A DNA stretch of 64,000 bases from Sphyrna mokarran (taxonomy: Eukaryota): NCBI GenBank assembly GCA_024679065.1, contig JAGIQG010000009.1, positions 81,220,001 through 81,284,000 on the forward strand, written 5' to 3'. The position numbers and the translations under genes were made by a program. Under the pieces are notes generated by a model. That model ran no database searches. It saw nothing but the letters and a program-made list of their open reading frames with translations, and was not told the origin of the DNA. Shown piece by piece: positions 4,831 to 35,299 of this stretch; the stretch's first letter is position 1, and each line of letters opens with the position of its first letter.

Positions 4831-5226
4831 AAAACTACACTGACTGTGTGAGGTTTCCATGAGTGAAGGGATCCATTTTAAATGATCCCTGTTGTGACCA
4901 ATCGAGGGCAGGATTCCAGCTGATTATTCCTCACCCAGAGGAAAACAAAATTGGGATCCAGTTCAGGCAGTTAACAAATGAGGGATCCTGTCTGAGGACT
5001 GGTCACAACATGTACACAGCAAGATCCCACATACAGCAATGAGAACAATCAGCATTTTCAGTGATGTTGGATCCGGGATAAATGTCGGGTTGAACTCATC
5101 CCAAAGAGAAAGTAACAAAAGCTTGGAACACTGAAGCCACTGGATTGTGAGCCCTGCTGTGGCTGTTTGTCATCAGAACTTCAGCAAGAGATATGCAGGG
5201 AGTGGAGAGAGCAGAGTGAAAGCTGG

Positions 5227-5255
5227 GGCAGGTGGCACCTCGGTGTCTCACTGTG
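5227..5255. promoter_or_regulatory. Candidate J-C intronic element: kE2-type E-box GGCAGGTGG (5227-5235) and a lone heptamer (CACAGTG on minus, 5249-5255)
   Basis: Motif matches inside a non-TE block that is nearly identical in cluster 2 (33049-33077). Confidence 0.35.
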
Positions 5256-5634
5256 CTGCTGCTGTGATCAGTGATATCAGAGAGTGAGACAGAGAGTTCA
5301 ATTTCACATCAAACTCTGCCTGTGTGTGTCACACTGAGACCGACAGGAGTCTAGAGAGTGATTTCACTCCATGCTGCAGGAATGTGAACACAGTCTGCAA
5401 ACGTCCAGATCTCCTCCACACGGTGGGTAAAAGCTGCTTACTGAAATCTTGCTGTTTAAAGGGGGGAATGGAAGGAAAGAAATACAGCTGGACTCCCTGT
5501 TCTACACAATGTTCTTCAATCAACCATTTCATTGACTGTAACTTCCTCACTAACACCTTCAACTATTCAGTATCTGTGTTTGAGAAAGTTTCAACATTGA
5601 AAAGATTAATAACGGAGGATTGGGCTTTACTTAC

Positions 5635-5669
5635 TCAGTCTGAGTTTGGTTCCTTTAGCAAACGTAAGG
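5635..5669 (-). CDS. IGKJ: Ig kappa-type J segment, cluster 1 (LTFAKGTKLRL)
   Basis: C CTT ACG TTT GCT AAA GGA ACC AAA CTC AGA CTG A followed by donor GTAAGT; flanked by a 23-RSS. Confidence 0.95.
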
Positions 5670-5708
5670 CACACTGACAGCTTCCAGTGCAGGAGCTGTA
5701 CAAAAACC
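5670..5708 (+). other. J1 recombination signal sequence, 23-bp spacer
   Basis: Heptamer CACACTG 5670-5676 (6/7), 23-nt spacer, perfect nonamer ACAAAAACC 5700-5708. Confidence 0.95.
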
Positions 5709-5973: not shown

Positions 5974-6348
5974 CTGTGTGTCCATTATTATATATTATAT
6001 AAAACTGTGGGATGTGTCAGTACAGGAGGTGGGACTGTGTGTCCATTATTATATATTATATAAAACTGTGGGATGTGTCAGTACAGGAGGTGGTGCTGTG
6101 TGTCCATTATTATATATTATATAAAACTGTGGGATGTGTCAGTACAGGAGGTGGGACTGTGTGTCCATTATTATATATTATATAAAACTGTGGGATGTGT
6201 CAGTACAGGAGGTGAGACTGTGTGTCCATTATTATATATTATATAAAACTGTGGGATGTGTCAGTACAGGAGGTGGTGCTGTGTGTCCATTATTATATAT
6301 TATATAAAACTGTGGGATGTGTCAGTACAGGAGGTGGGACTGTGTGTG
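5974..6348. repeat. 61-bp minisatellite, 6 copies, between J1 and V1
   Basis: Unit ctgtgtgtccattattatatattatataaaactgtgggatgtgtcagtacaggaggtggga; tccatt recurs every 61 nt from 5981 to 6286. Confidence 0.97.
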
Positions 6349-6352
6349 TTGG

Positions 6353-6380
6353 GGTTTTTGTAAGGCTCTGTATCACTGTG
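6353..6380 (-). other. V1 recombination signal sequence, 12-bp spacer
   Basis: Perfect CACAGTG (6380-6374), 12-nt spacer, perfect ACAAAAACC (6361-6353). V-12/J-23 is the kappa-type arrangement. Confidence 0.97.
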
Positions 6381-6678
6381 CAGGTGTTGCCTTGACGTTC
6401 CTGACAGTAATAATCAGCGACATCCTCATTCTGAACATTGCTGATTGTCAGGGTGAATCTTGTCCCAGATCCACTGCCGCTGAATCGGTCGGATACTCCT
6501 GTGAATCGATTTGTTGCATCGTAGATCAGCAGAGCCGGTTTCTGTCCTTCTCGCTGTTGATACCATTGCACATAGCTGCTAACAGACTGACTGGCCGTAC
6601 AGGTGATGGTGGCGGTCTGGCCCAGGCTCACTGACAGCACCGGGGGAGTCTGGGTCATGATGACCTCTCCATTGATAC
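6381..6678 (-). CDS. IGKV: Ig kappa-type V exon, cluster 1 ([10 protein letters not shown]...TATITC...WYQQ...[11 protein letters not shown])
   Basis: Open frame with both conserved Cys, [17 protein letters not shown] and DYYC; acceptor ccctcag at 6679-6680. Confidence 0.97.
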
Positions 6679-6864
6679 CTGAGGGATAATAGAGAAACAG
6701 AGTGAAGTCAGAACTGTCACAGAAAGAGGCTGTACAATGAGATATTGTTGGAGACACTGACTGTTCCTCTCCTTTCAACATTTTCCCTTCAATCACAAGT
6801 CAGGAGAATTGGATTGAAATGGAGAGCAGGAAAATATTCAAGGTGGAAGGAGAGAGATTAGTAC

Positions 6865-6913
6865 CTGCGATGCAGAATGCCAGAGGCCAGAGCAGCTGGA
6901 TGACTGAAATCAT
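6865..6913 (-). CDS. IGKV: Leader exon of V1 (MISVIQLLWPLAFCIA-G)
   Basis: ATG at 6913, 49-nt hydrophobic exon, phase-1 GT donor at 6864; splices in frame to the V exon. Confidence 0.93.
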
Positions 6914-6973: not shown

Positions 6974-7069
6974 TTTATAAAGCTGCAGCCTGTGAGAGTC
7001 TCACTGCCTGTTCCTCAGTTTGTAAATGGTCTGACCCAGACAAACCACGTCAGCACCTTTCACTTCCTC
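6974..7069 (-). promoter_or_regulatory. V1 promoter: TATA (6974-6981), degenerate octamer ATTTACAA (7020-7027), TGACGTGG (7045-7052), EICE GAGGAAGTGAAA (7058-7069)
   Basis: Motifs lie 60-155 nt upstream of the ATG and are all conserved in the V2 promoter. Confidence 0.65.
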
Positions 7070-7309
7070 TTCTTCTCTCTCCACAGTGTCTGAGGGACAG
7101 AGGCTGAGGGACAGAGACTCCCTCAATTGCTATCTCTTTTATACTCTGAGTAACTCTCCATTAGTCTATGTTTCTGCCTATCACACACTCACTATCTCCC
7201 TTTCTTACCTTCCCTGTCTCACTCTCTTTGTTTACCCTCTCATTCACTCTTTCTTTCTCTCTTCTCATTTTCCCTCCCTCTATTCCTCTCAGTTTCTCCT
7301 TCACTTTAT

Positions 7310-9430: not shown

Positions 9431-10239
9431 CTGAACTTCATCCTCTCCATCACCTCAGGCTCTTATTTCCACAAAATTGTCCTCCTCTACACTACATCAT
9501 TACCTTAAGCACAGTAACCCCCTTGTCCCTGCATGTCCCATCTACTGATTCTGTTATTCCGATATCCCTTACCAGCTCCCCTTATCCACACTCCATAAAC
9601 CTCATCTTGTCACAAATGCAGTAGGCCCAGACTCTGTCTCACACCAAGTGTCGTTCGAACACCACCCGCACCTCTGTGATCTATCACCCCTGACCTCAGT
9701 GGTCATCACCCCTGACCCCAGTGATCTATTACTCCTGACTTCATTTACCTTTTACCCCTGACCTCACTGCTCTCCAATTCCCTCCATGGCCTCACTCTTC
9801 CCTACTCCTGTGTTCCTGCTCCAGATTCAGATTTCTCCCTCACCTTCCATCTGCTGATTCTGCTCCCTGGCCCATCGCTGCTTCCTTTATCCCACCAGTG
9901 ACAGCAGAGTCTTCAAACATCCAGGTCCTGCTCTCTGCCCTCTGACCCTTAATCCCTTCCCCTCTCCAAATCTTTTTCCCCAACAAACTCCATCCTTTCA
10001 CCCAAGCCTTTGATTTCTCTTCCAAAACTACCCCCAGCCCCTCCCCCATTCCCCTAATGCTGCTCTGTGAAACATAATGGGCTATGTTGTACACTACGAT
10101 GCTATATAAATTCAGATTCTGGTTTTTGGTTGGGGACAGAATTAGACACAGTGGTGAAGGCTCTTGCAGTCAAATATCCTGCTGACAGGATCCAGACTTC
10201 AACACACAGAATGGGACATTGTGTAAAGTAGGAATTATT

Positions 10240-11161
10240 AAAAATGTATTCATTGACGGGATGTGGATGTCACTGACTGTCCCAACATTTATTGCCCATC
10301 CCTAATTGTCCTTGAGAAGGTGGTGATGAACTGCCTTCTTGAAATGCTGCAGTCCATGAGGTGTACGTACACCCACAGTGCTGTTAGGGAGGGATTTCCA
10401 GGATTCTGACCCAGCGACAGTGCATGAACAGAGATGTATTTCCATTTCAGAATGGCATGTGGCTTGGAGGGGAATCTCCTGGTGATGTTGATCCCAGGGA
10501 TCTGCTACATTTGTCTTTCCAGATGAGAGTGGTCATGGTATTCAAAGGTGCTGCCTCAGGAACCTTGGTGAGTTCATGCAGGGCATCTTATAGATGGCAC
10601 ACACTGCTGCCACTGTTCGACAGTGGTGGAGAAACTTAATGTTTGTGAATGGGGTGCCAATCAAGTGGTGCTGCTTTGTTCTGGATGATGTTGAGCTTTT
10701 TGAGTGTTGCTGGAGCTCTACTCATCCAGACAAGTGGAGAGTATTCCATCACACTCCAGACTTGTGCCTTGTCGATGGTGGAGAGGCTTTGGAGAGTCAG
10801 GATGTGAGTTACTCGCTGCAGGATTCCTATCCACTGACCTTCTCTTGTAGCTACAGTATTTATAGGCTGGTCCAGTTCAGTTTCTGGTCAATCATAACCA
10901 ACAGGATTTTACAGTGTGGGATTCAGTGATGGTAATGACATTGAATGTCAAGGGGAGATGTTAAAATTCTCTCATGTTGGGGATGGTGATTCCGTGGTAC
11001 TGATGTGGCATGAATGTTACTGCTTCAATATCTGAGGAGTTGTGAATGGTGCTGAGCATTGTGCAATCATCAGTGAACATCCCCACTTCTGAAGGTCATT
11101 ACTGAAGCAGCTGAAGATGGTTGTGTCTCAGACACGACCCTGAGGAATTCCTGCAGTGATG
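10240..11161 (-). mobile_element. Degenerate L2/CR1-group LINE 3' part; paralogue at about 39040-39955
   Basis: Minus-strand RT C-terminal peptide (STIYKAQVWSVMEYSPL in the paralogue) and a 3' tail containing gggcaataaatg. Confidence 0.75.
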
Positions 11162-11537
11162 TCCCAGGATAACTCCCTCCTGACTGTATCCCACTGTGCC
11201 TTCTGTGCTGGGAGATTGGAGGTAGTGAACACGGTTCACCATTTTCTCCCGTCTCAGTAACAAACATCCAGCTGCTCTGAGCTCCTTCTTTCACTTCCTC
11301 TGTTGGTTACGTTTCAATCTTCCGATCTGACAGTCTTTGCAGTTATTTTTGACACTGGGGATTTGTGCTGTGGTCTGAATCTCTAACAATAACTGTCCAA
11401 TCAGTGAAAAGAACAACAGCTCAGAGCAGTCAGGACTGAGGAGCCAGGCTCACTGGGAAACACATTGGGAAGATCAAAGCCATGGTCTTCAGCTCCCGAT
11501 ACAAACTCCATCCCTCCCCCTGAGCACTGTCTGCTGC
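11162..11537. promoter_or_regulatory. Candidate upstream enhancer: E-box CAGCTG (11269-11274), EICE (11289-11300), RUNX TGTGGT (11369-11374)
   Basis: By eye identical to 39957-40332; its left part is an inverted copy of sequence 3' of C. Confidence 0.5.
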
Positions 11538-12299
11538 TCAACCACACTCTCTACAACATTGGCCTCAACTTTGACCCTGATCTGACCCACCACCCTCCTC
11601 ACCTCTGCCCTTCCCCTGTGACAAATCCTCCACATCACAAAGTTTACTCTGCTTGCTCTTTCCTCGATCCAAACTGGATGTTTTCACACTCTCCACATTG
11701 AATTCCATCTGCCATTGTCTTCAGACCCCATCACAAACTCTGTTCCCTCAACACTGATTCCATCCCTTCCCCTTTGGAGTGTCTGACACTGAACCACACA
11801 GTCCACAGCCATGGTGTCCTATTTGACCCTGAGATGACTTTCCCACCACATCATCCACTCCATCACTAAGAACATCTATTTCCACCTGGGGAACATCTCC
11901 CAAGTCCCCCATGCTTGACATCATCTTCTGCTGAAAATCTCATCTCTATCTTTGTTACCTTCTGAACATTACTGTTCCAATGCTGTCCTGGTCAACCTCA
12001 CACCTACCACCCTCTGTAATCATCACCTCATCCAGAACTCTGCTGCCCGGATCTGAACTCACACCAAATCCCGTTCACCCATCATCCCCTGTTCTCACTG
12101 ACCTACACTGACCTCCGGTCCAGCAATGCCCTGATTTTAACATTCTCATTCTGCCTCTCAAATCCCTCCGTACCCTGCACCCTCCCTATCTCTGTAACCT
12201 CCTCCAAGCTGCCTCATTTAGTGTGTTCTCAGTAATCTTGGATATATGACTCTCCATTTCTTCGTCCAAGTCATTGACAAATATTGTGAAAGGGTGAGG

Positions 12300-13712
12300 C
12301 TTCAGCCTATTTTCAAGAAGGGGAACAGGGATAGCCTGGGCAATTACTGACCAGTGAGTCTGATCTCAGTAGTTGGTAAGTTGATGGAGAGGATTCTGAG
12401 GGACAGGATTTATAAGCATTTAGAGAAGTTCAATATGATCAGAAAGAGTCAACACGGCTTTGTTAAGGGCAGATTGTGTCTTACAAGCCTAGTTGAGGTC
12501 TTTGAAAATGTGACTCAACACATTGATGAAGGAAGAGCAGTGGACGTAGTTCACATGGATATCAGCAAGGCGTTTGATAAGGTCCCCCATGCAACCCTTC
12601 TTGAGAAGGTGAGAGAGCATGGGATCCAAGGGGCTTTGGCCTTCTGGATCTAGAACTGGCTTCCCGGCAGAAGGCAAAGAGTAGTAGTGGATGAGTCTTT
12701 TGCATGGAGGTCAGTCACCAATGGAGTGCTCCAGGGATCTGTTCTAGGACCCTTGCTGTTTGTCATTTTCATAAATGACCTGGATGAGGAAGTGGAGGGA
12801 TTGGTTTAGTAAGCTCGCCGACAATATGAAGGTTGGTGGTGTTGTAGATAGTCTGGAGGGATATCTGAAGTTGCAGCGAGACATAGATAGGATGCAAGAC
12901 TGAGCGGAGAAGTGGCAGATGGGACTTCGACGCGGATAAATGTGTGGTGGCCAATTTTGGCAGGACCAATGGGATGAAGGAGTATAATATCAAGGGTAGT
13001 AGTCTTGGCAAAAGGATCTTGGGGTCTGGGTCCATAGGACTCTTAAATCTGCCTCACAAATGGAGGATGTGGTCAGCAAGGCATATGGTGTACTGGCCTT
13101 TATTAATCGAGGGATTGAGTTTAGGAGTCGGGAGGCAATGCTGCAACTTCATAAAACCCTTGTCAGACCCTACTTGGAGTATTGTGTGCGGTTCTGGTCG
13201 CCTCACTATAGGAAGAATGTGGAAGATATTGAGAGGGTGCAGAGGAGATTTACAGGGATGTTGCCTGGATTGGGGGGCATGCCTTATGAAGATAGGTTGA
13301 GAGAGCTAGGTCTCTTTTTCCTGGAGAGACGAAGGTTGAGAGGTGACCTCATAGAGGTTTTTAAGATGTTGAGAAGAATGGATAGAGTGGATTCTCAGAG
13401 GCTATTGCCCAGGGCTGAAATGGTCACTACGAGAGGACACAGGTTTAAGGTGCTGGGGGGCAAGTAGAGAGAAGATGTTAGAGGTAAGTTTTTCACTCAG
13501 AGGGTGGTGAGTGAATGGAATTGGCTGCCGTCAGTGATAGTAGAGGCGAACTCGCTGGGGTCTTTTAAGAGACTTCTGGATGATTACATGAGACTTAATG
13601 GGATTGGGAGTTCCAGATAGTTCTACGGCCCGGTAGGTACTGATATGATCGGCACAACTTGTGGGCCGAAGGGCCTGTTTGTGCTGTAGTGTTCTGTGTT
13701 TTATGTTATGTT
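12300..13712 (+). mobile_element. 5'-truncated CR1 LINE (RT and 3' end), unit-1 specific
   Basis: QHGFVKGR, DISKAFDKVPH and LVRPYLEYC motifs; ends in a tgttctgtgttttatgttatgttc tail. Confidence 0.9.
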
Positions 13713-14040
13713 CAGCACAGATCCCTGGGGACATCACTATTCACAGCTTGCTGATTGGACAACACACATTATCCCTACTCTCTGTCTCCTATCTCTGAAA
13801 CAATTCCTTATTCATGGCAAAAGCTTTCTTCTAATTCCATACTTTATTCACAGCCTCTTGTGTGGCACCTTCCCAAATGTCTTTTGCCAATGCTTAGAAA
13901 TAATATCCAGAGACAATCCCTTACTGAGGACATTAGTGGCTAAACAGCATCTATTTCAATATAAGGAGCCTGTCTGGTCAGGCAGATGAACTTAGAGAGT
14001 TGGTCGGCATGAGGAAATATGAGATTGTTGTAATCACTAA

Positions 14041-17000
14041 GAGGAGAGCATCACGGCGGTGCAGAGGGAGGACAATACAGAGGAGTTAGGAGTGGAGTCA
14101 CTGTGGGTGGAGTTGAAGAATAGAAAGGGGGTGATTACTTTGCTAGGGGTGTATTATAGGCCACCCCACAGCCCGCGGGTAGTTGAAGAAGGCATATGTA
14201 AAGACATTTTGGATAGGTGCAGAAAGAACAGAGTCGTTATAGTGGGAGTTTTTAATCTCCCAAGGGTGGATTGGAAAGTACCGAGAGCTGGGGTTTTGGA
14301 CGGGCAGGAATTTGTAAAATGTGTACTGGAAGGATCGTTGGAGCAGTATGTGGCTAGCCCGACTGGAGAAGGGGCTATATTGGATTTAGTTCTGAGTAGT
14401 GAGCCAGGGCAGGTGGTTGATGTTGTAGTAGGGGAACATGTGGCTAACAGTGACCACAATTCTGTCCCCTTTAGGGTACAGATAGAAAAGGATGCAAGTT
14501 GCCCTAGGGGCAGGGTGCTGAATTGGGGGAAGGCTAACTATGGTCTTATTAGACAGGAACTTACGGAAACTGATTGGGAACGGTTGTTTGAGGGTAAGTT
14601 CACGCTAGGCATGTGGGACTCTTTCAAGGGAATACTGAAAATGTTGCAAGATAGATATGTGCCAGCTAAGAGGAAAGATGGGAAAGGTAGGATAAGAGAG
14701 CCGTGGATTACTAGGGATACTGAGGACTTGGTTAGGAAGAAAAGAGAGGTGTATGATAGGTCAAAGCAGCTGGGAACGGAGACAGCGTTGGAGGAGTATA
14801 GAGAGAGCAGGAGGGGGCTCAAACAGGGAGTTAGAAGGGCAAAAAGGGGCATGAAATGATCTTGGCGGATAGGATTAAGGAAAATACAAAGGCTTTTTAC
14901 TCCTATGTTAGGAATAAAAGAGTGGTTAGAGGAAAAATCAGACCTCTTAGGGACAGAGGAGAGGAACTGTGCTTAGAGCCTGAGGGAATGGCGGAGATCC
15001 TGAATGAATAATTTGCATCGGTATTCACAAAGGAGAGGGGCCAGTTGACAGCTCCTATCTCTGAGGGAGCTGTGGACCAGTTGAGGGAAATTTCCATACC
15101 AAGGAGGAAGTGTTAGAGCTTCTAGGTAGCATTAAAACTGATAAATCTCCGGGGCCTGATGGCATTTGTCTCAGGCTGCTGAGGGAGGTGTGTGGTGAAA
15201 TTGCTGGGCCTCTGATACAAATCTTTGTCTCTTCTTTGAACACAGGTGAGGTCCCAGAGGACTGGAGAATAGCTAATGTTGTATCGTTGTTTAAAAAGGG
15301 TAGTAGGGATAACCCTGGGAATTATAGGCTGGTGAGTTTGACGTCAGTGGTAGGGAAGTTGTTGGAGGGGATTCTTAGAGATAAGATGTACAGGCACTTA
15401 GAGCGTTGTGATCTGATTAGGGATACGCAACATGGATTTGTTAAGGGGAGGTCACGCCTTACATATCTGGTAGAATTTTTTGAGGAGGTGATGAAAACGG
15501 TGGACGAAAGGTGAGCCGTTGATGTCGTTTATATGGATTTTAGTAAGGCGTTTGACAAAGTCCCTCATGGGAGGTTAGTTGAGAAGGTCAAGGCAAAGGG
15601 GATACAAGGACAGGTAGTTAGCTGGATAAGTAACTAGCTTAGTAATAGGAGACAGAGAGTAATAGTGGAAGGGTGTTTTTCTAACTGGATGTCGGTCACT
15701 AGCAGTGTGCCGCAGGGCTCGATACTGGGACCTCTTCTATTTGTAAAATATATAAATGACTTGGAAGAGGGAGTAAGTGGAGTGATCAGCAAGTCTGCAG
15801 ACGATACAAAGATGGCTGGACTTGCGGATAGTGAGGAGCATTGTCAGGCGATACAGCAGGACATAGATAGGCTGGTGGCTTGGGCAGATAGATGGCAGAT
15901 GGAATTCAATCCTGATAAATATGAGGTGATGCATTTCAGGAGAAAGAATGTAGTGGGGAAGTATATGATAAAGGGTAGACCTATTAAGAGTATAGAAACG
16001 CGGAGGGACCTGGGGGTGCAGGTGAACAACTCTCTGAAGGTGGCAGAGCAAGTGGAGAAGGTTGTGACGAAAGCATATAGTATGTTAGCCTTTATAGGAA
16101 GGGGTATAGAGTACAAGAGCTGGCCTTTAATGTTGCAGTTGTATAAAACGTTGGGTAGGCCTCATTTGGAATACAGCGTCTAGTTCTGGACACCTTACTA
16201 CCGGAACGACGTGGAGACTCTGGAGAGAATGCAGAGGAGGTTTACCAGGATGCTGCCTGGTATGGAAGGTCTGAGTTACGAGGAGAGGTTAGGAAAATTG
16301 GGACTGTTTTCCTGAGAAAGACATAGACTTAGAGGAGATCTAATAGAGGTGTACAAGATTATGAGGGGCATAGATAGAGTAAACAGGGTAAAGCTTTTTC
16401 CTAGGATGGAGTCAAATAGCACGAGGGGTCACGGGGTTAGGGTGAGGGGGGGTAAGGTATAATTTGGATGCTAGAGGGAGTTTTTTCACACAGAGGTTGG
16501 TGGGGGTATGGAATGCACTACCAAGTAAAGTGGTGGAGGCAGGTACTCTGGAGTTATTTAAGAAAGACTTAGATGGGCACATGAACAGAATGGGAATGGA
16601 GGGGTTTAGAAAACTGATTTAAAATAGGAATCATGAGCCTTGGGAGTCCCTGGGAAGTATGTAAATAGATGATGATATTGATGTACTTGTTTTTATCCGA
16701 CAGGTGCGTTGGTCCACCTTGTTGTCTGACAAGGGGCATACACGTGATGGGTCGTGAGAGGGCTGCTCTTGGATTTTTTTTCCGAGAGTATCCTAGTACA
16801 TCGTTAGTGTACGCTTGACCTGGACCATTTGATGGGCAACTCGACAGCTCAGTGACAATTGCTGTGCTGTGCAAATACCTGTGTCTGTGGGAGTTTGTGC
16901 ATTCTCCCCGTGCTTGTGTGGGTTTTCTCCGGGTGCTCCGGTTTCCTCCCACATCCCAAAGATGTGCTCTTAGGCTAATTGGCAAAACAAATTCTCTCTA

Positions 17001-17141
17001 AATTGTCTCAAATTTGGTTTTTAATCCATAGATCTATAAACATAGACAGAGATCACGGGTAGAGGTGGGAACATCGGGGTGGCGGCGCTGGCTCGTTGGG
17101 CCGAAGGGCCTGTTTCCCATGCTGTTGTGTTCTTTGTTCTT
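14041..17141 (+). mobile_element. CR1 LINE (endonuclease and RT, disrupted) with an extended SINE-containing 3' region, inserted into an older CR1
   Basis: ORFs 14059-14859 (GVYYRPP, SDHN), 15110-15514 and 15665-16183. The empty site is seen at about 40983-40990. Confidence 0.88.
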
Positions 17142-17999
17142 TGAGACATGGTTGAACGAAGGACAAGATTGGAATCTCGATATTCCAGGGTATAGAAATT
17201 CCAGGCAGGATGGGGAAAGGGGTGTGTAAGTTCGGAAGGGATATTGATTTATTGATTAAAGAGCCCAAGCCTGCAGTAATGAGGGAGAGATATTGGAATG
17301 CTCTTCAAATGAGGTCATATGATGGAGCTGAGAAATATAAAGAGCAATCATTGTATGGGATTATAGCACAGCCCTCCCAACACTCAGAGGGAGGTAGAGG
17401 AGCAGATATGTAGGCAAATCACAGAGAGAGACATGAGAGGAATTAGGATATAATAGTCGGGGATTTTAACTTCACCAATATTAATAGAATCACTTTAGTC
17501 TGAAAAGATTAAACAGGGTGGAATTTTAGAAGTGATTCCAGGAGAGCTTTTTCTGTCAGTAGATAGATAATCCAACTCAGGATGGCCCGTGCTCGACCTA
17601 ATCGTTAGGAATGAATCCGGGCAAGTTGTTGAAGTGTCGGTGGGGTGAGCATTTTGGGGATGGGGTAGGTGAACAGAGCAATGAAGCATGGAATTTAATC
17701 CTGATAAGTGTGAGGTGCTGTATTTTGGGAGATTTAGTAAGGGTAGGATATACACAATGAACGGTGGGTCCCGAGGGAGAATTGAAGAATAAAGGGACTT
17801 TGGTTTACAAATCTATGGATCCCTGAAGGTTGCATTACAGAGAGAGAGTGCGATGAAGAAGGCAATTGGAATGCTTGCCTTCATTAGCTGGGGTTGGAAT
17901 ATGGGAGCAGGTAAATGGGATGAGTATAGATTGGTATTGGATGGTCAGCATAGACATGGTGGGCCGAAGGGCCTGATTCTGTGCTGTGTAACTCTATGA

Positions 18000-20826
18000 C
18001 ACAAAATGGACTTGGAGCAATTCTATCCCATAGACTGGAGGATGGAATGGAGAGGCTAAATTCATTTGCTTTGAGGACTTTGTCAGACGTTGAGAAAATT
18101 TCCTCACAAATTGACATAGAAAGCCCAGCAGTTATCCACACAGTGAAAAATTTCACCAATATGTCTATGGGCGGCATTTCACCATCGTGTCAGACCATAA
18201 GCCATTGTTGGGACTTTTCCAGGACATTAAGCCAGTGCCACCTATTGCCTCTGCCAAGGTGCAGAGATGGGCATTGCTGCTGGCACTAAACAGCTAAACC
18301 TTCCAGCATAGGCCGGGAAAACCGATCTCAAATGCAGATGCATTGAGCCGCCTGCCGCTACCACAGACCATACCGTCACCGCCTGTTCCACAGGAGATAG
18401 TATTGGCTCTGCATTATTTGGATACCCTGCCTGTTTCAGCAGCCCACATTCAGATGTGGACAGATAGGGAGCTGGTGTTAGCAAAGGACAAGAAAATGGT
18501 ACTGACCGGGTGGCACTTTGACAAGGCAGAGCAAATGAAGCTGTATTTACATTGCAGGGACCAGATACCCTGTGAAGAGGGGTATCAGTTTCATAGAACA
18601 TAGAACATAGAACATTACAGCGCAGAACAGGCCCTTCGGCCCTCGATGTTGCGCCGACCAATTAGGAACAAGCAGTGACTCTCTAACCTAAACCATTCCC
18701 TTTTCATCCATAAACTTATCTACTAACCTCTTAAATGCCACCAAACTTAGCGCATTTACAACTGACGCAGGCAAGGCATTCCATACCCTTATCACCCTCT
18801 GGGTAAAGAACGTACCTCTAACATTGTCCTAAAACGACCACCCCTTAATTTAAAGCTATGTCCCCTCGTGCTAGCTTTCTCCATCCTAGGAAAAAGGCTA
18901 TCACTGTCCACCCTATCTAAACCTCTAATCATCTTATATGTTTCAATAAGGTCTCCTCTTAGCCACCTTCTTTCTAACGAAAACAACCTCAACTCTCTCA
19001 GCCTCTCTTCATAAGACCTGCTTCATACCAGGCAACATCCTGGTAAACCTCCTCTGTACCCTCTCCAATGCCTCCACATCTTTCTTATAATGCGGGGACC
19101 AGAACTGTACACAATACTCCAAGTGCGGCCGCATTAGAGTTTTGTACAGTTGCAACATGACGTTGCAGCTCCGAAATTCAATCCCCCTACCAATAAAAAC
19201 TAAGACTCCGTATGCCTTCTTAACAACGTTATCAACTTGATTGCCAGCTTTCAGGGATCTATGCACACATACACCAAGATCCCTCTGTTCATCAACACTA
19301 TTAAGAGTCCTACTATTAGCTCTATACTCTACACATTTGTTATTCCTGCCAAAGTGAATTACCTCACACTTTTCCACATTAAACTCCATTTGCCACCTCT
19401 CAGCCCAGCTCTGCAACTTGTCCAAATCTGTCTGCAAACTATAACACCCCTCTTCACTATCTACCACTCCTCCAACTTTGGTGTCACCCGCAAATTTAAT
19501 AATCCATCTTTCAATACCCTCATCCAGATCATTTATAAAAATTACAAACAGCAGGGGCCCCAAAACAGATCCCTGAGGTACACCACTAGTAACTGAACTC
19601 CATGATGAATATCTCTCATGAACCACCACCATAAATGTTCTATGTTCTATGGTCTTCCTGAAGTGTTGCTGTCAGACAACGGAGCAGCATTCACACTGAT
19701 GAATCTCAGACTTTGATCAAGCCTAATGACATTGGTCATGTCAGGCCAGCCCCCGACCATCCTGCCTCGAGTGGCTTGGTGGAGCGAGCCATGCTGATGT
19801 TCAAGGCTTCATGTGAAGCATGGACCACTGCCATTGCAATTGGCCAGTTATTTGCTGTCCTACAACACTATACCTCACACTATCACTGGGGTCATGTCGG
19901 GGTCACACCCGCAGCGTTATTAATGGGTCGGTGCCTATGTACCTGTTTGGATTTATTGTTCCCAAATTTGTTGGAGAGGATGGAGGCTCAGCGAGCCTCT
20001 CAGAAAGGGTATCGTGGCTTTCAGAAAGGGGACAGATTGTTTAATGATGGCAACCTCATGTTGAGAGGGAATTTGAATGGTGGACCCAGTTGTGGAGAAG
20101 GCAGGACCAGTCTCATATTTGGGGGAGACACAGGGCTGTGGAGCTAAGGAACATATTGGTTACCTACGCAAGAGATTAGAGCAAGCTCCAGGAGATGAGC
20201 AATTGGGCCCCGTAACCAGTTTGTGTGTACCAGCCTCTGAACAAGACAATTCCATGTCCATTGTGTGGCCAAGGCAGCGTCTGGCTTGGGTGGGTGAGGA
20301 AGAGAAAAGGAGCTGCCTAGGGCCTTGCTCCAGAGATGGTTAGCACATCCACCCCATCAGTGGATCCTGTATCGATGGCTGCTGAAGTGCCCCTGATAGA
20401 GTTGCAGCGTTCCGCAAGGTTCCAGAAATCTCTGGACCAGCTGACATTATGAACTGTCTTTCCCTGGTGTCCCTCCTGTAATATTGTTGTTTCTCTGCCT
20501 GTGTGTTAACTGTTGTACTTTTTGTTTGATCACAGGGAGTCCAAGATGTTCCAGGGGAAGGAGTGTGTGAGCCTGGCCCCTTTAAGGGGCAATCCTTCAC
20601 AGGCCACATGACCAGACCGGAGCCAATGGACTGTGAGGGTGTGGACCTGGGCCAATCGGGAGTGAGGGTGATCATTCCTGGGACTGGAGGCTTCAGTTGG
20701 AGTCAGGATGTTGTTGGTAATAGATCTGTCTGCTTGTGTTGTTAAACCCTTCATTGGAAATACTTCTTCTCATCAATAAAGCCTTTAGTGAGTTATTTCC
20801 AAATCCACTCTCCTCCACTTATTACA
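18000..20826 (+). mobile_element. Ty3/Gypsy LTR-retrotransposon remnant (RNase H/integrase) with probable 3' LTR at 20564-20826
   Basis: Integrase core LPEVLLSDNGAAFT and APDHPASSGLVERA; polypurine tract aggggaaggag (20553-20563) followed by a TG...ACA 263-bp segment containing AATAAA. Confidence 0.75.
18595..19651 (-). mobile_element. 5'-truncated CR1 inserted in the Gypsy remnant, unit-1 specific
   Basis: ORF 19009-19632 (GVPQGSVLGP, FAGDTK) and (catagaa)n tail; absent from the paralogous site at about 44538. Confidence 0.9.
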
Positions 20827-21464
20827 ATCAGCATCTCTACCACTTTGGATAGCAACAGTCTCTCAGAACATCAAATACACACACTAACTATTCAACTCCA
20901 ACAGTTTCACCAGCTGCTGTCACCCTCCCTACTTCCTTCCATTTATTCTGCATTCTCACCATCTCCCCTCCATTTCTCACTGAATCCTCCACTTTCCTGG
21001 TCTTTCCTGTGTCCAGGTTCACCTGCCCCCTTCCCCTTGGGATTGTTCCATTGCTTTGTTGCAGAAACATTCTGGTTGTGATCAGGGTTCTCTCCACTGC
21101 AACCCGAGACATTCGGTCTGGGCTAGTGTCGATGTTTAACATTCTGTCCCACCTTGGACTGAACACATAACCAGTGAGGGTCCGACCCACACGATGAGAG
21201 TTTGTCACCGTAAAGGAGTCAGGGATCCCGAATGCTGCCATATAACCTGTGTGGGATAATTATTCACTGGATTTAGCTGAGAGTTACATAATATTGGATG
21301 TTGTTTTGGAATAAAGGGAAATCTCAATGTTCAGGAAACATCGACGATTGAGAAGAAAGGGGGAGCTTCATGTAATAGTGTGTGTGTCCAGCCCTGAGTT
21401 CATGCATTTAGTTAAATGCATTGTTGTGTATTATAGAGTTTGTGTGTTTTGTTTTCTTTCTACA

Positions 21465-22340
21465 TATTGTAGATGGTCTGGAAGAATGTCTGAAGTTGCA
21501 GTGAGATGTAGATACGATGCAAGACTGGGAGCAGAAGTGGCAGATGGACTTCAACGCAGATAAATATGTGGTGGTCCATTTTGGCAGGTCCAATGGAATG
21601 AAAGAGTATAATATCAAGGGTAGGAGTCTTGGCAGTGTTGAGGAGCAGATGTATCTTGGGGTCTGGGTCCATAAGTCTGTTAAATCTGCCCTGAAGTGGA
21701 GGATGTGGTCAAGAAGGCATAAGGCGTACTGGCCTTCATTAATAGAGGAATTGACTTTAGGAGTCAGGAGGTAATGCTGCAACTTTATAAAACTCTTGTT
21801 AGACCCCACTTGGAGTATTGTGTGCAGTTCTGGTCACCTCACTATAGGAAGGATGTGGAAGTTATTGAGAGGGTGCAGAGGAGATTTACAAGGATGTTGC
21901 CTGGATTGGGGGGCATCCCTTATGAAGATAGGTTGAGAGATCGAGGTCTCTTTTCCCTGGAGAGACGAAGGTTGAGAGGAGACCTGATAGAGGTTTATAA
22001 GATGTTGAAAGGAATAGATAGAGTGGATTCTTGGATTTCCCAGGGATGAAATGGTCGCTTTGAGAGGACACAGGTTTAATGTGCTGGGGGGCAAGTATAG
22101 AGGAGATGTTAGAAGTAAGTTTTTCACTCAGAGGGTGATGAGTGAATGGAATCGGTTGGCGTCAGTGGTGGTAGAGGCAAACTCGCTGGGGTCTTTTAAG
22201 AGACTTCTGGATGAGTACACGGGATTTAATGTGATTGGGAGTTCCAGATATTTCTATGGCCTGGTAGGTATAGATATGATCGGCACAACTTATGGGCCGA
22301 AGAGCCTGTTTGTGCTGCAGTGTTCTATGTTCCACGTTCT
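21465..22340 (+). mobile_element. 5'-truncated CR1; paralogue at 46688-47552
   Basis: [17 protein letters not shown] and FTQRV motifs, tgttcta tail. Confidence 0.88.
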
Positions 22341-23059
22341 AGGAATGAATATTCTGTATTAATTATTCACACAAAGACTGGACTATTTCTCCCTGGTTCA
22401 CACACTTTTCTCACAGGATACTAAAGTGAAAATCTACACCACTGAGAACCAGTGTTCCATGTTCCCATTCTGAGCTTTGAGATCCTCTCACATTTAACAT
22501 CTGTGTGGGTCTTAACACCTCAAACAACATTCTATTCTCTCAAAAGTAACTCTGGAGATTGTTGCTGGGATTATAAAATGATTCCAGATCCATATAATTT
22601 TATTGTTGAGCTGCCTTCTTTAACCCTGCCACAAATTGCATCCATTAAACTTTTGGATTTATATTTTGGGAAGAGATAAACACATTTTAAACTCTTCTTT
22701 GAGCACAGAAGCTTTCAGCATTTGGATTTGTGTCAATTGTTGTCAAACCTTCAAAAATAAACATTTCCTGTTGAGAACATTATCAGGACCCAAACCTGAA
22801 CCTTTAAACTTTGTAAGAATTATAATTTCCACGATCAAAATTGAAACTCCCTCTTCCTGATGTGTGCAGCTTCGTATCCAGATTGAAATCCCACATGTTT
22901 ATTAACAGATATTCTTTATCTTCGATAACATCTTTGTATCTCAAAGGTCACTTGCTGAAAGGTCAGATTCTTATTGATCTGTGTGTCCATATCAGATCTC
23001 CTGTCCCCAAGTAGAAAATACCAGTGGTCCTGAAGGGGTTAAATCATTTTCCACAGAAT

Positions 23060-23375
23060 CCCTAACGTGCAGAAGGAGTCCATTTGGCCCATTGAATCTA
23101 CACCATCAACAATCCCATCCCACGTCCTATCCCTACGACCCCACACATTTACCTCACTAATCTCTCTCACCTCCACATCCTGGGACATGAAGGGACAATT
23201 TAGCATGGCCAATCAACCTAACCCACACATCTTTGACTGTAGAAGAAATCTGGAGTACCCAAAGAAAATCCGTGCGTTTACGGGGAGAATGCGCAAACTT
23301 CACAGTGATCGAAACCGGGAATCAAGCCCAGGTCCTTGGAGCTGTTATACAGCAGTGTTAACCACTGTGCCTAAA
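23060..23375 (-). mobile_element. tRNA-derived SINE, antisense; paralogue at 52612-52922
   Basis: Reverse complement of the V-SINE-like body (gggagaatgcgcaaact..., aaccactgtgcc). Confidence 0.75.
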
Positions 23376-23929
23376 CCACAGTGGTTAACTGTGGTTCTAA
23401 ACCACGACTATGGTGTGGGAATAAAAATCTTCTTAATGTTGCTGGCAATGTTGTTCCATTTGTGATTCTCTGGAAATAAAAACACAAGGTCCATTCTGCT
23501 CGAGGGGGGAATGGATTCAGCAATCTGAAAATTTAAGTTGTTGTTGCAAAGAGTTCACTCTGGCCCCGATTTTACAAATTGGAGCCTAAGGCCCGGATCC
23601 AGGAATAATACCGATCCGAGCCCGGAATTGTCACTGCAGCGAGCCCATACGCTTATTATATATATTTTGAAATAATGCAGCATCTTCTTTGCGCTGCCTA
23701 ATTATCTATGGGAAAGGTAATTAAACTACAGTGTCCTAGTGAGCAATTAGTGAGCTGTTTGTCCCTGTAACCATGAGCCAGGTGCTTAAATGTTTAGTCA
23801 TGTGGTGAACTTGGAAGAATTGTCCCCGTGGTGGAACTTGGTTGGAAATAAGATTTAAGGAGATTATTAAATCTGGGAAATCAACCACAGTGAAAAGAAG
23901 TTTGTATTGGCAACTCTTCTCTCACATTC

Positions 23930-24784
23930 CATGGCAGATGTGTCCCTACTTATGAATGTGATTTGCACGGACAACGTTGGGTGCAGCTAATCTGCCTCTG
24001 GAACAGCCTTGGATCCTTTCGTTCTTCTTTTCATCTGAACATTGCACAGAATTAGAGGAATTCCCTTTGGAAAATAATGTCAAAATTATAATGGCAGGAA
24101 CTAAAAACCCAACAGTCAAAAATTTGGGAAAATATTTTAAAATATGGATGGGGGGATATATATTTTGAAATATTTTCCCAAAGACTGTCAGATTGGAAGA
24201 TTGAAATGTAACCAACAGAGGAAGTGAAAGAAGCAGCCGAATATTTGTTACTGAGACGGGAACAATTATTTGAACAACATTAAACTTTCAGACTCAAAAG
24301 AAATAAAAACACTAGCAGTGGAGGGGGTGGGAGGAATCTTGGAGACTGACACCGACAGGAACAATCTAAACAGCTGAAACTCCCATTTCCTCAGTCCCTG
24401 CCCGTCACTGCTGAGGAACTCCCCGAGGGGAACCCTCTCGCTCTGACACTCTCTCTCTCTCTCTCTGCTTCTGTCTTTCTCTCCTCTCTCTCACTCTCCC
24501 TCCTGGATGAAAGCTTAAATAACTTGCAGCAAATTAATTCATTTCCATCTTTCTAATTATTTGAAAAATTCACTGAGTGGCATTTTGAGTCCCCAATCTA
24601 AATTTTTCCCTCTCACTCACTGCACCTGACACCAGGAAATGGTCAATACTGTTTTACTGTACCAGTTCGAGCAGCTGGATGTTTGTTACTGAGACGGGAG
24701 AAAATGGTGAACCGTGTTCACTACCTCCAATCTCCCAGCACAGAAGGCACAGTGGGATACAGTCAGGAGGGAGTTATCCTGGGA
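23930..24784. promoter_or_regulatory. Candidate 3' enhancer downstream of C (cluster 2): octamer-like TGATTTGCAC 23959-23968, EICE 24218-24229, kB-type GGGGAGTTCC (minus) 24415-24424, E-box 24672-24677; paralogue at 54160-54997
   Basis: A cluster of B-cell factor motifs in mostly non-TE sequence 1.3-2.1 kb 3' of the C stop codon, conserved in cluster 3. Confidence 0.5.
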
Positions 24785-25129
24785 ATCCTCAACAACATTC
24801 CAGACTCCATGTAGTCTCTCGGTACCATGTCAAACACAGACAAGGAAACCTCCTCTGGTCACGACATACCGTCCCCCCCTCAGCTGATGAACCAGTTCTC
24901 CTCCGTGTTGAACACCACTTGGAGGAAGCACTGAGGGTGGGAAGGACACAGAATATACTCTGGGTGGGGAATTCAATGTCCATCACCAAGAGTTACTTGC
25001 TGAAACAATGGGAGTAGTGAGACCGTGTGAGAGGGGGAGGTGGTGAATATGGGATGGACAGCTGTGACTGAGGGCATTTAAAGACAAAATTGTAAATTAT
25101 GTTTATATGTTGAAATGCCCTGTTTGTGA

Positions 25130-25238
25130 ACAGAATTCCCACTCACCTGATGAAGGGTCAGTGCTCCGAAAGCGAGTGGTTTGTGCTACTAAATAAACCT
25201 GTTGGACTTTAACCTGGTGTCAGACTGCTTACTGTGTC
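25130..25238 (+). mobile_element. Penelope-like palindromic element remnant with a degenerate hammerhead core (CTGATGA 25147-25153, GAAA 25168-25171)
   Basis: cacCTGATGAagggtcagtgctccGAAAgcgagtg followed by an aataaacctgttggactttaacctggtg arm; the cleavage-site U is replaced by G. Confidence 0.7.
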
Positions 25239-25454
25239 ATTGATTGACAGTCCAAGCAACCAATCAGGACAATCACTTGTTGAAGTGCAGCCAATCAGCT
25301 GATGGAGAGGTGGGACATTTCCAAAGCACTCACCAGACATATACTGAATATTCTTAATGTTTATTACCTTTTACACATTGACATTGACAGAAAAAAGACT
25401 TGAATAAACAGCCCAGCCAGAGGAAGCTGGAGAAGTTCACAGGGAGAATGGAGG

Positions 25455-25460
25455 TTTATT
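25455..25460 (-). terminator. Probable polyadenylation signal of the cluster 2 light-chain mRNA (second signal at 25360-25365)
   Basis: First canonical AATAAA shared with cluster 3 (55612-55617) downstream of the C stop. Confidence 0.65.
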
Positions 25461-25718
25461 AAAACACTTGTGGAGATTTTCTCAATAACATGAGAATCCT
25501 GTCCCTTTAAACAGTGACTAAAGCTTCAATTGTAACTGCAGGGTGAGCAGGAAGGAGGTCTGGTTTACTGAAGCAGATACTTCAGAGGGTCACATTATTT
25601 CTGAACAGCTGACAGTATTCAGCACTCCCAGTAAAGGCACAGCACAGGGTTAATAGAGAGTAAAGCTCCCTCTACAATATCCCAACAATGTTCTTTAACC
25701 CCTGACCCTCAGAAGTGT

Positions 25719-25928
25719 TGATGTAGAGATGCCGGCGTTGGACTGGGGTAAACTCAGTAAGATTTTACAACACCAATTTTAAATCCAACCAATTTATTTG
25801 GTAGTAAATTCGCGAGCTTTCGATGCTATATGCACCTTCCTCAGGCAAATGCAGTGTTCTGCATTTAGAATGAGGGAATTTAGTTACTACCAAATAAATT
25901 GGTTGGATTTAAAATTGGTGTTGTAAAA
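25719..25928 (-). mobile_element. Penelope-like palindromic insertion in the predicted C 3' UTR, with 12-bp target-site duplication
   Basis: cctcagaagtgt duplicated at 25707-25718 and 25929-25940; single copy (empty site) at about 55864-55875; perfect 45-bp inverted arms 25763-25807 and 25884-25928. Confidence 0.88.
25808..25850 (-). ncRNA. Minimal type I hammerhead ribozyme motif
   Basis: AUUUGC-CUGAGGA-A-GGUGC(AUAUA)GCAUC-GAAA-GC-UC^GCGAAU: complete core, 6-bp stem I, 5-bp stem II, vestigial palindromic stem III (AGCU). Confidence 0.75.
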
Positions 25929-26061: not shown

Positions 26062-26390
26062 CTAGGCACATTCTGAACTCCTGACACTCTTGCTGAGGGG
26101 AGAGGAGAGGCTCACGTGGGTGAGGGCACAAGAGAAGCGAGCGTTGGACTCCCAGTCGGAGCCAGAGAGGGTCAGCAGGCTGCTGACACTGTAGGTGTTG
26201 TCCGAAGCTCGCAGGTAGTTGCTGGTCTGAATCCCGTTGGAAATGGCTGCACCGTCCTTCTTCCACTTCACCTCCACCTCATCGGGATAGAAGTGATCGG
26301 CAAGGCACACCAGGGTGGCAGTGCCCTTGGTCTTGACCTCCTCCGGGGAGGGGGGCAGCAGGGTCAGCGTGGGTTGTGAATTCTCACGGG
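26062..26390 (-). CDS. IGKC: Ig kappa-type constant exon, cluster 2 ((T)RENSQPTLTLLPPSPEEVKTKGTATLVCLADHFYP...FSCALTH...SSECA*)
   Basis: Intact C1-set domain with both Cys, Trp and the penultimate inter-chain Cys; ttccag acceptor in phase with the J donor; TAG at 26062-26064. Confidence 0.97.
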
Positions 26391-31958: not shown

Positions 31959-33456
31959 AGAAGCATTGAGATGAGAATTTGAAATTCCAAAGCATACAAG
32001 GCTACGAATCAAGTGCTGGAAAATGTGATTAGAATAGTTAGGAGCTTGATGGCCAGCAGAAACAGGATGGGCTGAAGGGGTTCTTTCTGTGCTGTAAATT
32101 TCTATGGCATTCTGACTGAGCTAAAATGGCCGAGAATGTAACATTACCATTTTCTGGAAAATTCTGATGTGCATAGAACACAGAACATTACAGCGCAGTA
32201 CAGGCCCTTGATATTGTGCTGACCAGTGTAACCAATGTAATGACCCTCTAACCTAAACTATTCCAATATTACTCATTTGCCTATCCAATGACCATTTGAA
32301 TGCCCCTAAAGTTGGCGAATCCACAACTGCTGCAGGCAGAGCATTCCACGCCCTTATTGCCCTCTGAGTAATTGCAAAAATCTGCAGGTTAGATGGATTG
32401 GCCATTCTAAATTGCCCGTAGTGTGTTCTTTAGATGGGTTAGCAATGGTAAATGTGCAGGGTTACAGGGAGCCTGGGTAAGAAGCTCTTTGGGAGAATCG
32501 GGTGAAAAGATTTCCCTCACGTCTCTCAAAATCTGCTGCCTCTGTGATCAACGGGAAAAGTTTCCTCATATCTACCCTATCTCTGTCTCTCGTAATTCTG
32601 TCGATGGACTGAATATCCTCCTCCTGCACTGTAGAGATTCAATGGCTAATAAAAAACTACACGGACTGTGTAAAGTTTCCACGGGTGAAGGGATCCATTT
32701 TAAATGATCCCTGTTGTGACCAAGCGAGGGCGGGATTCCAGCTGATTATTCCTCACCCAAAGGAAAACAAAACTGGGATCCTGTTGAGGAAGTTAACAAA
32801 TGAGGGACCCTGTCTGAGGACTGGTCACAACATGTACACAGCAAGATCCCACACACAGCAATGAGAACAATCAGCATTTCCAGTGACGTTGGATCCAGGA
32901 TAAATATCGGATTGAACTCATCCCAAACAGAAAGTAACAAAAGCCTGGAACACTGAAGCCACTGGATTGTGAGCCCTGCTGTGGCTGTTTGTCATCAGAA
33001 CTTCAGCAAGAGATAAGCAGGGAGTGGAGAGAGCAGAGTGAAAGCTGGGGCAGGTGGCACCTCGGTGTCTCACTGTGCTGCTGCTGTGATCAGTGATATC
33101 AGAGAGTGAGACAGAGAGTTCAACTTCACATCAAACTCTGCCTGTGTGTGTCACACTGAGACCGACAGGAGTCTAGAGAGTGATTTCACTCCATGCTGCA
33201 GGAATGTGAACACAGTCTGCAAACGTCCAAATCTCCTCCACACGGTGGGTAAAAGCTGCTTACTGAAATCTTGCTGTTTAAAGGGGGGAATGGAAGGAAA
33301 GAAATACAGCTGGACTCCCTGTTCTACACAATGTTCTTCAATCAACCATTTCATTGACTGCAACTTCCTCACTAACACCTTCAACTATTCAGTATTTGTG
33401 TTTGAGAAAGTTTCAGCATTGAAAGGGTTAATAACGGAGGATTGGGCTTTACTTAC

Positions 33457-33491
33457 TCAGTCTGAGTTTGGTTCCTTTAGCAAACGTAAGG
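33457..33491 (-). CDS. IGKJ: Ig kappa-type J segment, cluster 2 (LTFAKGTKLRL)
   Basis: Identical to J1, with GTAAGT donor. Confidence 0.95.
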
Positions 33492-33530
33492 CACACTGAC
33501 AGCTTCCAGTGCAGGAGCTGTACAAAAACC
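33492..33530 (+). other. J2 recombination signal sequence, 23-bp spacer
   Basis: CACACTG 33492-33498, 23-nt spacer, ACAAAAACC 33522-33530. Confidence 0.95.
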
Positions 33531-33742: not shown

Positions 33743-34969
33743 GTGTGTCCATTATTATATATTATATAAAACTGTGGGATGTGTCAGTACAGGAGGTGGG
33801 ACTGTGTGTCCATTATTATATATTATATAAAACTGTGGGATGTGTCAGTACAGGAGGTGGGACTGTGTGTCCAATATTATATATTATATAAAACTGTGGG
33901 ATGTGTCAGTACAGGAGGTGGGACTGTGTGTCCATTATTATATATTATATAAAACTGTGGGATGTGTCAGTACAGGAGGTGGGACTGTGTGTCCATTATT
34001 ATATATTATATAAAACTGTGGGATGTGTCAGTACAGGAGGTGGGACTGTGTGTCCATTATTATATATTATATAAAACTGTGGGATGTGTCAGTACAGGAG
34101 GTGGGACTGTGTGTCCATTATTATATATTATATAAAACTGTGGGATGTGTCAGTACAGGAGGTGGGACTGTGTGTCCATTATTATATATTATATAAAACT
34201 GTGGGATGTGTCAGTACAGGAGGTGGGACTGTGTGTCCATTATTATATATTATATAAAACTGTGGGATGTGTCAGTACAGGAGGTGGGACTGTGTGTCCA
34301 TTATTATATATTATATAAAACTGTGGGATGTGTCAGTACAGGAGGTGGGACTGTGTGTCCATTATTATATATTATATAAAACTGTGGGATGTGTCAGTAC
34401 AGGAGGTGGGACTGTGTGTCCATTATTATACATTATATAAAACTGTGGGATGTGTTAGTACAGGAAGTGGGACTGTGTATCCATTATTATATATTATATA
34501 AAACTGTGGGATGTGTCAGTACAGGAGGTGGGACTGTGTGTCCATTATTATATATCATACAAAACTGTGGCTTGTGTCAGTGCAGGAGGTGGGACTGTGT
34601 ATCCATTATTATATATTATATAAAACTGTGGGATGTGTCAGTACAGGAAGTGGGACTGTGTATCCATTATTATATATTATATAAAACTGTGGGATGTGTC
34701 AGTACAGGAGGTGGGACTGTGTGTCCATTATTATATATCATACAAAACTGTGGGATGTGTCAGTACAGGAGGTGGGACTGTGTGTCCATTATTGTATATC
34801 ATACAAAACTGTGGCTTGTGTCAGTACAGGAGGTGGGACTGTGTATCCATTATTATATATTATATAAAACTGTGGGATGTGTCAGTACAGGAAGTGGGAC
34901 TGTGTGTCCATTATTATATATTATATAAATCTGTGGGATGTGTCAGTACAGGAGGTGGGACTGTGTGTG
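33743..34969. repeat. 61-bp minisatellite, 20 copies, between J2 and V2
   Basis: Same unit as at 5974; tcca register runs from 33748 to 34907 (19 x 61 nt). Confidence 0.97.
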
Positions 34970-34973
34970 TTGG

Positions 34974-35001
34974 GGTTTTTGTAAGGCTCTGTATCACTGT
35001 G
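34974..35001 (-). other. V2 recombination signal sequence, 12-bp spacer
   Basis: CACAGTG (35001-34995), 12-nt spacer, ACAAAAACC (34982-34974). Confidence 0.97.
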
Positions 35002-35299
35002 TAGGGGGAGCTGTTACTTTGCTGACAGTAATAATCAGCGACATCCTCATTCTGAACTTTGCTGATTGTCAGGGTGAATCTTGTCCCATATCCACTGCCG
35101 CTGAATCGGTCAGACACTCCTGATGCAGTATTTGATGCATAGTAGATCAGCAGAGCCGGTTTCTGTCCTTCTCGCTGTTGATACCAATGCACGTCGTTGG
35201 TAACAGATTGACTGGCTGTACAGGTGATGGTGGCGGTCTGGCCCAGGCTCACTGACAGCACCGCGGGAGTCTGGGTCATGATGATCTCTCCATTGATAC
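35002..35299 (-). CDS. IGKV: Ig kappa-type V exon, cluster 2 ([10 protein letters not shown]...[11 protein letters not shown])
   Basis: Open V domain with all hallmark residues; AG acceptor at 35300-35301. Confidence 0.97.

Follow-up and report, generated by a model that had tools for sequence, protein, structure and literature searches.

Locus and gene segments

The stretch analyzed here, hereafter the window, comprises 64,000 nucleotides of Sphyrna mokarran (contig JAGIQG010000009.1, positions 81,220,001 to 81,284,000). Judged by sequence, shark kappa-type V-J-C immunoglobulin (Ig) light-chain miniclusters are arrayed in tandem at this locus, and the element in question is a short module with an Ets-IRF composite element (EICE) that lies upstream of the variable (V) genes and, inverted, 3′ of the constant (C) exons. 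Self-BLAST resolved the window into portions of three tandem units, each about 29 kb long. A unit has one V, one joining (J), and one C segment of the same polarity, with a 12-spacer recombination signal sequence (RSS) at V and a 23-spacer RSS at J. All segments are on the minus strand: V1 (6381-6913; leader 6865-6913 and V exon 6381-6678, then the 12-spacer RSS at 6353-6380), J1 (5635-5669, preceded by the 23-spacer RSS at 5670-5708), V2 leader and exon (35002-35534; 12-spacer RSS 34974-35001), J2 (33457-33491; 23-spacer RSS 33492-33530), the C2 exon (26062-26390), which encodes an Ig C1-set light-chain constant domain, and the C3 exon (55996-56324). V2-J2-C2 is the sole complete cluster in the window.

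The V-set and C1-set domains were assigned by Pfam, light-chain constants were the best single-domain PDB matches for C, and a Scyliorhinus torazame L-V-C protein (P0004) was 95% identical to the start of C, with 35% of the query aligned. The kappa label of the units is presumptive insofar as it leans partly on the 12/23 RSS order. At least 27,184 of the window's 64,000 bases are matched by retroelement coding sequence. Split V-J-C clusters have been described for shark kappa (NS4, type III), which in nurse shark comprises about 60 genes and is the highest expressed light chain (PMC5192425, PMC2193156).

Structure of the inverted modules

An upstream module (U) was found for two of the two V genes and a 3′ module (D) for two of the two C exons. 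An earlier note on this DNA, made from the letters alone, had described an exact 116-bp inverted repeat and a second, near-exact one beside it, occurring again in the next unit. Self-BLAST bore out the exact repeat, as 11162-11277 (block A of U1) matched 24784-24669 (block A of the 3′ copy, D1-a) at 116 of 116 positions, and also the near-exact one (11286-11337 versus 24181-24233, 50 of 52 aligned bases). For the second unit, 39957-40072 is identical to 11162-11277 and, as reverse complement, to 24669-24784, whereas 54882-54997 carries two differences (114/116) and is near-exact only.

The order of parts in U1 is as follows. A LINE (long interspersed nuclear element) fragment on the minus strand (10240-11161), which runs from the reverse transcriptase (RT) motif (E 4e-4 against a profile built from the window's RT frames) through the 3′ tail (E 6e-6), is joined directly to a LINE endonuclease stub on the same strand (11162-11215; 11162-11200 tool-matched, the rest assigned by eye). 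The stub forms one end of block A, and the unique remainder of A, with an E-box CAGCTG at 11269-11274, is followed by a 10-bp linker, the EICE-bearing 53-bp block B (11287-11339), block X (11340-11455), which is unique and identical between units, and further debris. U2 (A and B, 39957-40134) lies 4.5 kb 5′ of the V2 ATG and has its EICE at 40083-40096 on the minus strand.

The D modules run in the inverted direction. D1 consists of a longer LINE endonuclease fragment on the plus strand (24731-25010), which runs on past the repeat arm, block A (24669-24784, E-box 24672-24677), 407 bp of unrelated sequence (Y), the 30-bp A′ (24232-24261; a decayed paralogue of A's end, 27/30, E-box lost), block B (D1-b, 24179-24231; EICE 24217-24230 on the plus strand), an AT-rich 60-bp hairpin that adjoins B and is absent from U (24123-24182; 23-bp arms, 96% complementary), and block Z (23945-24122), which has one difference in 178 bases between units. 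D2 (54393-54997) comprises B (54393-54445, EICE 54431-54444 on the plus strand), A′ (54446-54475), and A (54882-54997). The earlier note had described the 3′ module as split over two internal paralogues. In Z we presume an octamer-like ATTTGCAC at 23961, an E-box CATCTG at 24032, and a kB-like site at 24056.

The suggestion that one module end derives from a LINE endonuclease was supported when P0006 (an Exo_endo_phos match at E 0.0014, short of the curated cut-off) and P0007 (Exo_endo_phos_2, E 4e-7) were used as tblastn queries: 12 of 16 residues matched within 24746-24793 and, with P0006, 10 of 13 within 11162-11200. Because the stub is placed inside the arm, LINE debris accounts for about 55 of the 116 identical bases, and the EICE falls outside the perfect arm. 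The shared sequence had been said to contain both the EICE and CAGCTG (11269 and 24672); both are present in U, and the exact 116 bp hold the E-box without the EICE. In U the endonuclease stub adjoins the RT motif directly, and the perfect arm stops at that LINE junction.

Unit-to-unit comparison was restricted to plus-strand hits that were 400 bp or longer, had an identity of 86% or more, and were offset by more than 20 kb, with tandem-array self hits left out; among the 15 retained collinear alignments, 12840-13703 is probably a non-orthologous LINE pair. As had been noticed by eye, the units do not differ around 11162-11537: the zero-difference run extends over 11149-11537 (389 bp; partner 39944-40332), ends at a structural breakpoint, and is the longest of all in these alignments. 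Nearby LINE debris does diverge, at 42 of 909 positions in 10240-11148 and 68 of 619 in 9600-10239. Repeat debris makes up 149 of the 389 identical bases, namely 67 bp of tool-supported LINE and 82 bp that we take to be L2. The L2 label for 11456-12230 is tentative and has weak nhmmer matches behind it (E 4e-4), as 11 stop-free fragments of U's flanks returned no Pfam family.

Given the LINE endonuclease sequence within the arm and the small hairpin beside B, the module might be a piece of a dispersed repeat (a short interspersed element, a miniature inverted-repeat transposable element, or a LINE 5′ region) or the terminal inverted repeats of a large DNA transposon. We consider this very improbable. 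U's unique part matched six module positions only in the 64 kb (E<0.001), the whole window gave no Rfam match, and the protein search with P0001, a translated third 3′ copy, matched other sequences in the LINE part only (residues 44-98 in three of the four other hits and 89-123 in the fourth). Terminal inverted repeats were rejected because the outer end of the 3′ arm continues as LINE endonuclease and the outer flanks differ, without a target duplication.

Other candidates were likewise discarded. A kappa-deleting element would have a heptamer plus a nonamer at 23 bp, 3′ of C. Heptamers occur at 24748 and 54961, but these lie in the LINE stub, the 12/23 scan found no RSS there, and the window holds 33 such heptamers. 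A V-leader relic rested on a 15-bp leader-exon match, CATCCAGCTGCTCTG, and an nhmmer match of E 0.7, neither of them significant (62 and 65 of 1000 shuffles), and at least 15 of 3012 other windows scored higher. A flip of the spacer between the arms is contradicted by collinear blocks in the same orientation in both spacers. Homology did not rise above shuffles for A's left part versus the sequence beside A′, for Y versus B, X, or Z, or for 25198-25719 versus U, and a protein search with the frame over the 3′ EICE block gave no hit among nine candidates.

Two further observations concern the modules. A perfect 12-bp inverted repeat (11272-11283 and 11418-11429) has a left arm spanning the U-only 10-bp linker between A and B, and the linker may be a templated insertion. 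In D2, about 185 bp of the LINE endonuclease fragment still present in D1 (24808-24992) and P0001 is missing from the region 54808-55025; block A was kept.

A recurrent EICE 14-mer

The 14-mer AGAGGAAGTGAAAG occurred six times in the window, against 0.08 expected, and there was no other match even at one mismatch. Two of these occurrences are upstream, two are 3′, and two are in V promoters; Markov models of order 2-4 predicted 0.001-0.002 occurrences per unit. In U1 it occupies 11288-11301 on the minus strand, 4.4 kb 5′ of the V1 ATG, and in D1 and D2 the module lies 1832 bp and 1552 bp, respectively, from the stop codon, 3′ of the kappa constant exon. Its core GAGGAAGTGAAA was located at 11289-11300 (minus), 24218-24229 (plus), 40084-40095 (minus), and 54432-54443 (plus), and GGAAGTGAAA was present in four of four module copies with block B. 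This sequence fits, as had been proposed, the published consensus GGAAnnGAAA, the EICE bound by PU.1-IRF4/8 at mammalian 3′ kappa and lambda enhancers (PMC13757776, PMC5142813).

The third site lies in the V promoter (7057-7070, minus strand, approximately 145 bp 5′ of the V1 ATG; 35678-35691, minus strand, for V2), where it was missed by the earlier note, and is the best evidence in this analysis. After the EICE, the V1 promoter has TGACGT at 7047-7052 and a TATA-like box at 6974-6979. The flanks of the promoter 14-mer are unrelated to the modules, as 725 and 393 of 1000 shuffles scored as high, indicating that the promoter 14-mer is an independent occurrence; derivation of the module as a V-promoter paralogue was rejected on the same grounds. 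The chance of the 14-mer in such an AG-rich promoter flank was 5e-4, and the 14-mer lies 11 bp inside the edge of a promoter block conserved at 99%.

Mouse Vkappa promoters and RSSs have PU.1 sites, whereas here a full EICE stands next to TGACGT. Nurse shark NS4 genes have been described with an octamer motif (PMC2193156), whereas the exact octamer ATTTGCAT occurred once in the 64 kb, at 15011, and in none of the window's kappa promoters. At the octamer's expected place the V promoters hold ATTTACAA (7015-7025 and 35636-35646, minus strand), besides the TGACGT next to the EICE.

The E-box had been put forward as the partner of the EICE. The two lie close together in U, where a 13-bp gap separates them, but not in the 3′ copy, in which the adjacent E-box is mutated (CGGCTG/CAGCCG) and the nearest CAGCTG is 140 bp off. 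Close spacing of an E2A E-box and the EICE is a feature of the mouse enhancer core. RCAGCTG was found 30 times in the window versus 16 expected; the E-box is not specifically enriched and is weak evidence.

Selection versus conversion

Between U and D, block B showed one or two changes in 53 bases (51/53 and 52/53 versus the two 3′ copies), at CpG sites only, and the adjacent A′ three or four in 30. Beyond B, X (probably paralogous to 23984-24088) and Z aligned at 72 of 96 columns with 25 gaps, and none of 1000 shuffles and none of 234 tiles scored higher reciprocally, so that X and Z look like paralogues of far greater age and the homology probably extends past the limits that had been given for it. 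One unrelated tile of 238, however, beat Z, as did 16-17 of 234 with stiffer gap costs. Because the X/Z homology depends on scoring in this way, the age of the U-D duplication is only suggested. U and Z sit in divergence valleys like those at the V promoter, J, and C, and U had no difference in 240 unique bases between units. In P0001, residue differences numbered 0 of 35 inside the arm versus 10 of 77 outside (Fisher p 0.03).

Several results weigh against taking this identity, or the motif itself, as a sign of function. The comparison comprised two copies of each module and one translated fragment (P0001), and the identity of the latter extends 14 codons past the arm into LINE debris. Divergence between units was uneven, at 0-18% per 200-bp bin, and among the eight identical runs of at least 150 bp, three fall within LINE debris and a fourth within repeat-like sequence that has no annotation, so identity alone is no proof of selection. 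The U-D identity gave P 0.12-0.25 at a 3% background, and 0.001-0.004 at 6.5%. Furthermore, because all module copies share one ancestor, the motif has only two independent occurrences, module and promoter, and about 3.75 occurrences of the generic GGAANNGAAA are expected by chance.

The perfect identity of the arm had been read as conservation. Given that half of the 116 bp is LINE debris, recent templated copying explains it better, and we conclude from the alignments that recent conversion was probably mostly responsible for both the perfect arm and the 389-bp run. A conversion-like tract was also seen off the genes, where 20409-20638, by eye the 3′ end of a long terminal repeat (LTR) retrotransposon, forms a 230-bp identical run between units.

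It could be, accordingly, that neither module is functional, and that the pattern goes back to an old inverted duplication, segmental or repeat-mediated, which ectopic conversion over 13-15 kb homogenized and which carries an EICE-like word by chance. The perfect identity through neutral-looking LINE sequence, the long identical runs elsewhere in debris, and the chance frequency of the generic motif speak for this explanation. We nevertheless find it quite unlikely, as the exact 14-mer recurs in the promoter within unrelated flanks and B was kept while the adjoining A′ decayed. Somewhat less unlikely is that only the 3′ element and the promoter site are functional and that U is a passenger whose identity is maintained by conversion, both with the 3′ copy and from unit to unit. 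LINE debris flanks U on both sides, the arm ends at the endonuclease-to-RT junction, and the zero-difference run, with its 149 bp of debris, ends a smooth gradient of 11%, 5.9%, 3.3%, and 0%, all of which a passenger would show. Set against this are the 240 unchanged unique bases, the EICE and E-box kept 13 bp apart, the retention in U of CpGs lost by the 3′ copies, and X, which is without a close donor in D. We conclude that the argument for function depends on two things, block B and the reappearance of the 14-mer in the promoter.

A candidate enhancer system of the kappa miniclusters

With a probability of roughly 0.6, the 53-bp EICE block is the core of a B-lineage enhancer placed both 3′ of C and upstream of V, together with an EICE-bearing promoter. 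In each kappa minicluster, one enhancer copy would then follow C at a distance of 1.6-1.8 kb, and its inverted paralogue would precede V by 4.4-4.5 kb. Block B and the V-promoter 14-mer would be bound by IRF4/8 together with a member of the PU.1 family (PU.1, Spi-B, or SpiD), and these elements of its own would open each cluster for V-J joining and transcription; spi1, spib, and spid have been reported in a skate (PMC13670022). In this scheme the distance to the cluster's own V promoter would be 11.3 kb for D, the 3′ enhancer, and 4.4-4.5 kb for U, the upstream enhancer. U and D share one spacer, the next V lies 17.3 kb from D1, and the pairing of each element with a cluster is provisional. 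The upstream and 3′ copies may, with moderate support, stem from an older inverted duplication, and their present near-identity would be owed both to selection on the EICE block and to recent templated copying or conversion.

Because no more than 0.7-1.5 kb is removed by V-J joining, promoter and enhancer are not brought together as in mammals, and activation would instead be limited by factor loading. Such a limit matches the model proposed for shark Ig exclusion, in which B-lineage factors are limiting and a promoter-enhancer complex is rarely formed; that model is without named cis-elements in the available part of the paper (PMC2435157). As a tentative and rather doubtful extension, each cluster may be self-contained, with three identical EICEs of which the outer two face inward, and the need for several limiting PU.1/Spi-B-IRF complexes may make activation rare and all-or-none, forming the cis-side of the "infrequent promoter-enhancer holocomplex." Clusters would stay equally competitive through conversion between inverted copies, and light chains would have been under EICE control since the jawed-vertebrate ancestor.

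The geometry could also suit boundaries or silencers that isolate neighboring clusters, as the U and D EICEs are convergent around V2-J2-C2 and both lie in the spacer, and shark rearrangement stays inside clusters (PMC3014032). This idea draws on geometry only and is scarcely credible: mammalian light-chain enhancer EICEs activate (PMC13757776), and the window had no match, at one mismatch, to a CTCF consensus.

The B-lineage enhancer reading has its closest known relatives in the mammalian Ig kappa 3′ enhancer and the lambda enhancers, with which it shares the EICE; the likeness is one of motif, and the earlier idea of an ancient enhancer that is kappa-3′-like by descent is conjectural. By analogy, the element may work like a mammalian EICE light-chain enhancer, with the E-box feature found upstream only. 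It differs from them in that each minicluster has a single 3′ copy, only 1.6-1.8 kb past the stop codon, plus an inverted paralogue 5′ of V and a promoter EICE of identical sequence, in the loss of the E-box beside the 3′ EICE, and in a module that is partly LINE-derived. In the multicluster IgL locus of Atlantic cod, enhancer activity has reportedly been found 3′ of C in several clusters.

The word "enhancer" did not occur, and the EICE was not mentioned, in the available parts of the nurse shark NS4 papers PMC5192425 and PMC2193156. No description of shark kappa enhancers or EICEs was found in the open literature, including the available parts of PMC3014032, PMC4279169, PMC6146092, and PMC5142813; because much shark Ig work sits in subscription journals, mostly outside this scope, the negative is no proof of absence. 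If functional, the elements would bear on how one among dozens of near-identical Ig miniclusters is chosen per shark B cell, and they would place the PU.1-IRF enhancer logic of mammalian light chains in cartilaginous fish, in a new layout.

Other features of the locus

A conserved block just 3′ of J (5107-5630 and 32929-33452) showed approximately 1-2% divergence between units. It contains GAGGAAGT at 5541, CAGCTG at 5485, CAGGTG at 5229, and a lone heptamer at 5249, and part of it matched block X (64-66 of 87-88 columns) no less well than Z did. By its sequence this block is a candidate intronic enhancer. A second block, 25198-25719 (55355-55876 in the next unit), was 98% identical between units and spans the 3′ untranslated region with two AATAAA signals (25360 and 25455); past these signals are two CCAATCAG boxes (25260 and 25291) and an E-box at 25296, and CCAATCAG is also found in X at 11397.

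Between V and J, a 61-bp tandem array has 6.1 copies in the first cluster (5974-6347) and 20.1 copies in the second (33743-34968), which makes the V-J distance approximately twofold different. Both J segments carry the heptamer CACACTG and encode LTFAKGTKLRL, with alanine in place of the first glycine of the FGxG motif, whereas a rearranged relative, P0002, carries FGKG. P0002 and P0003, both shark light-chain V-J-C proteins, are filed under bacterial names (Aeromonas veronii and Salmonella enterica), apparently owing to host contamination of those assemblies.

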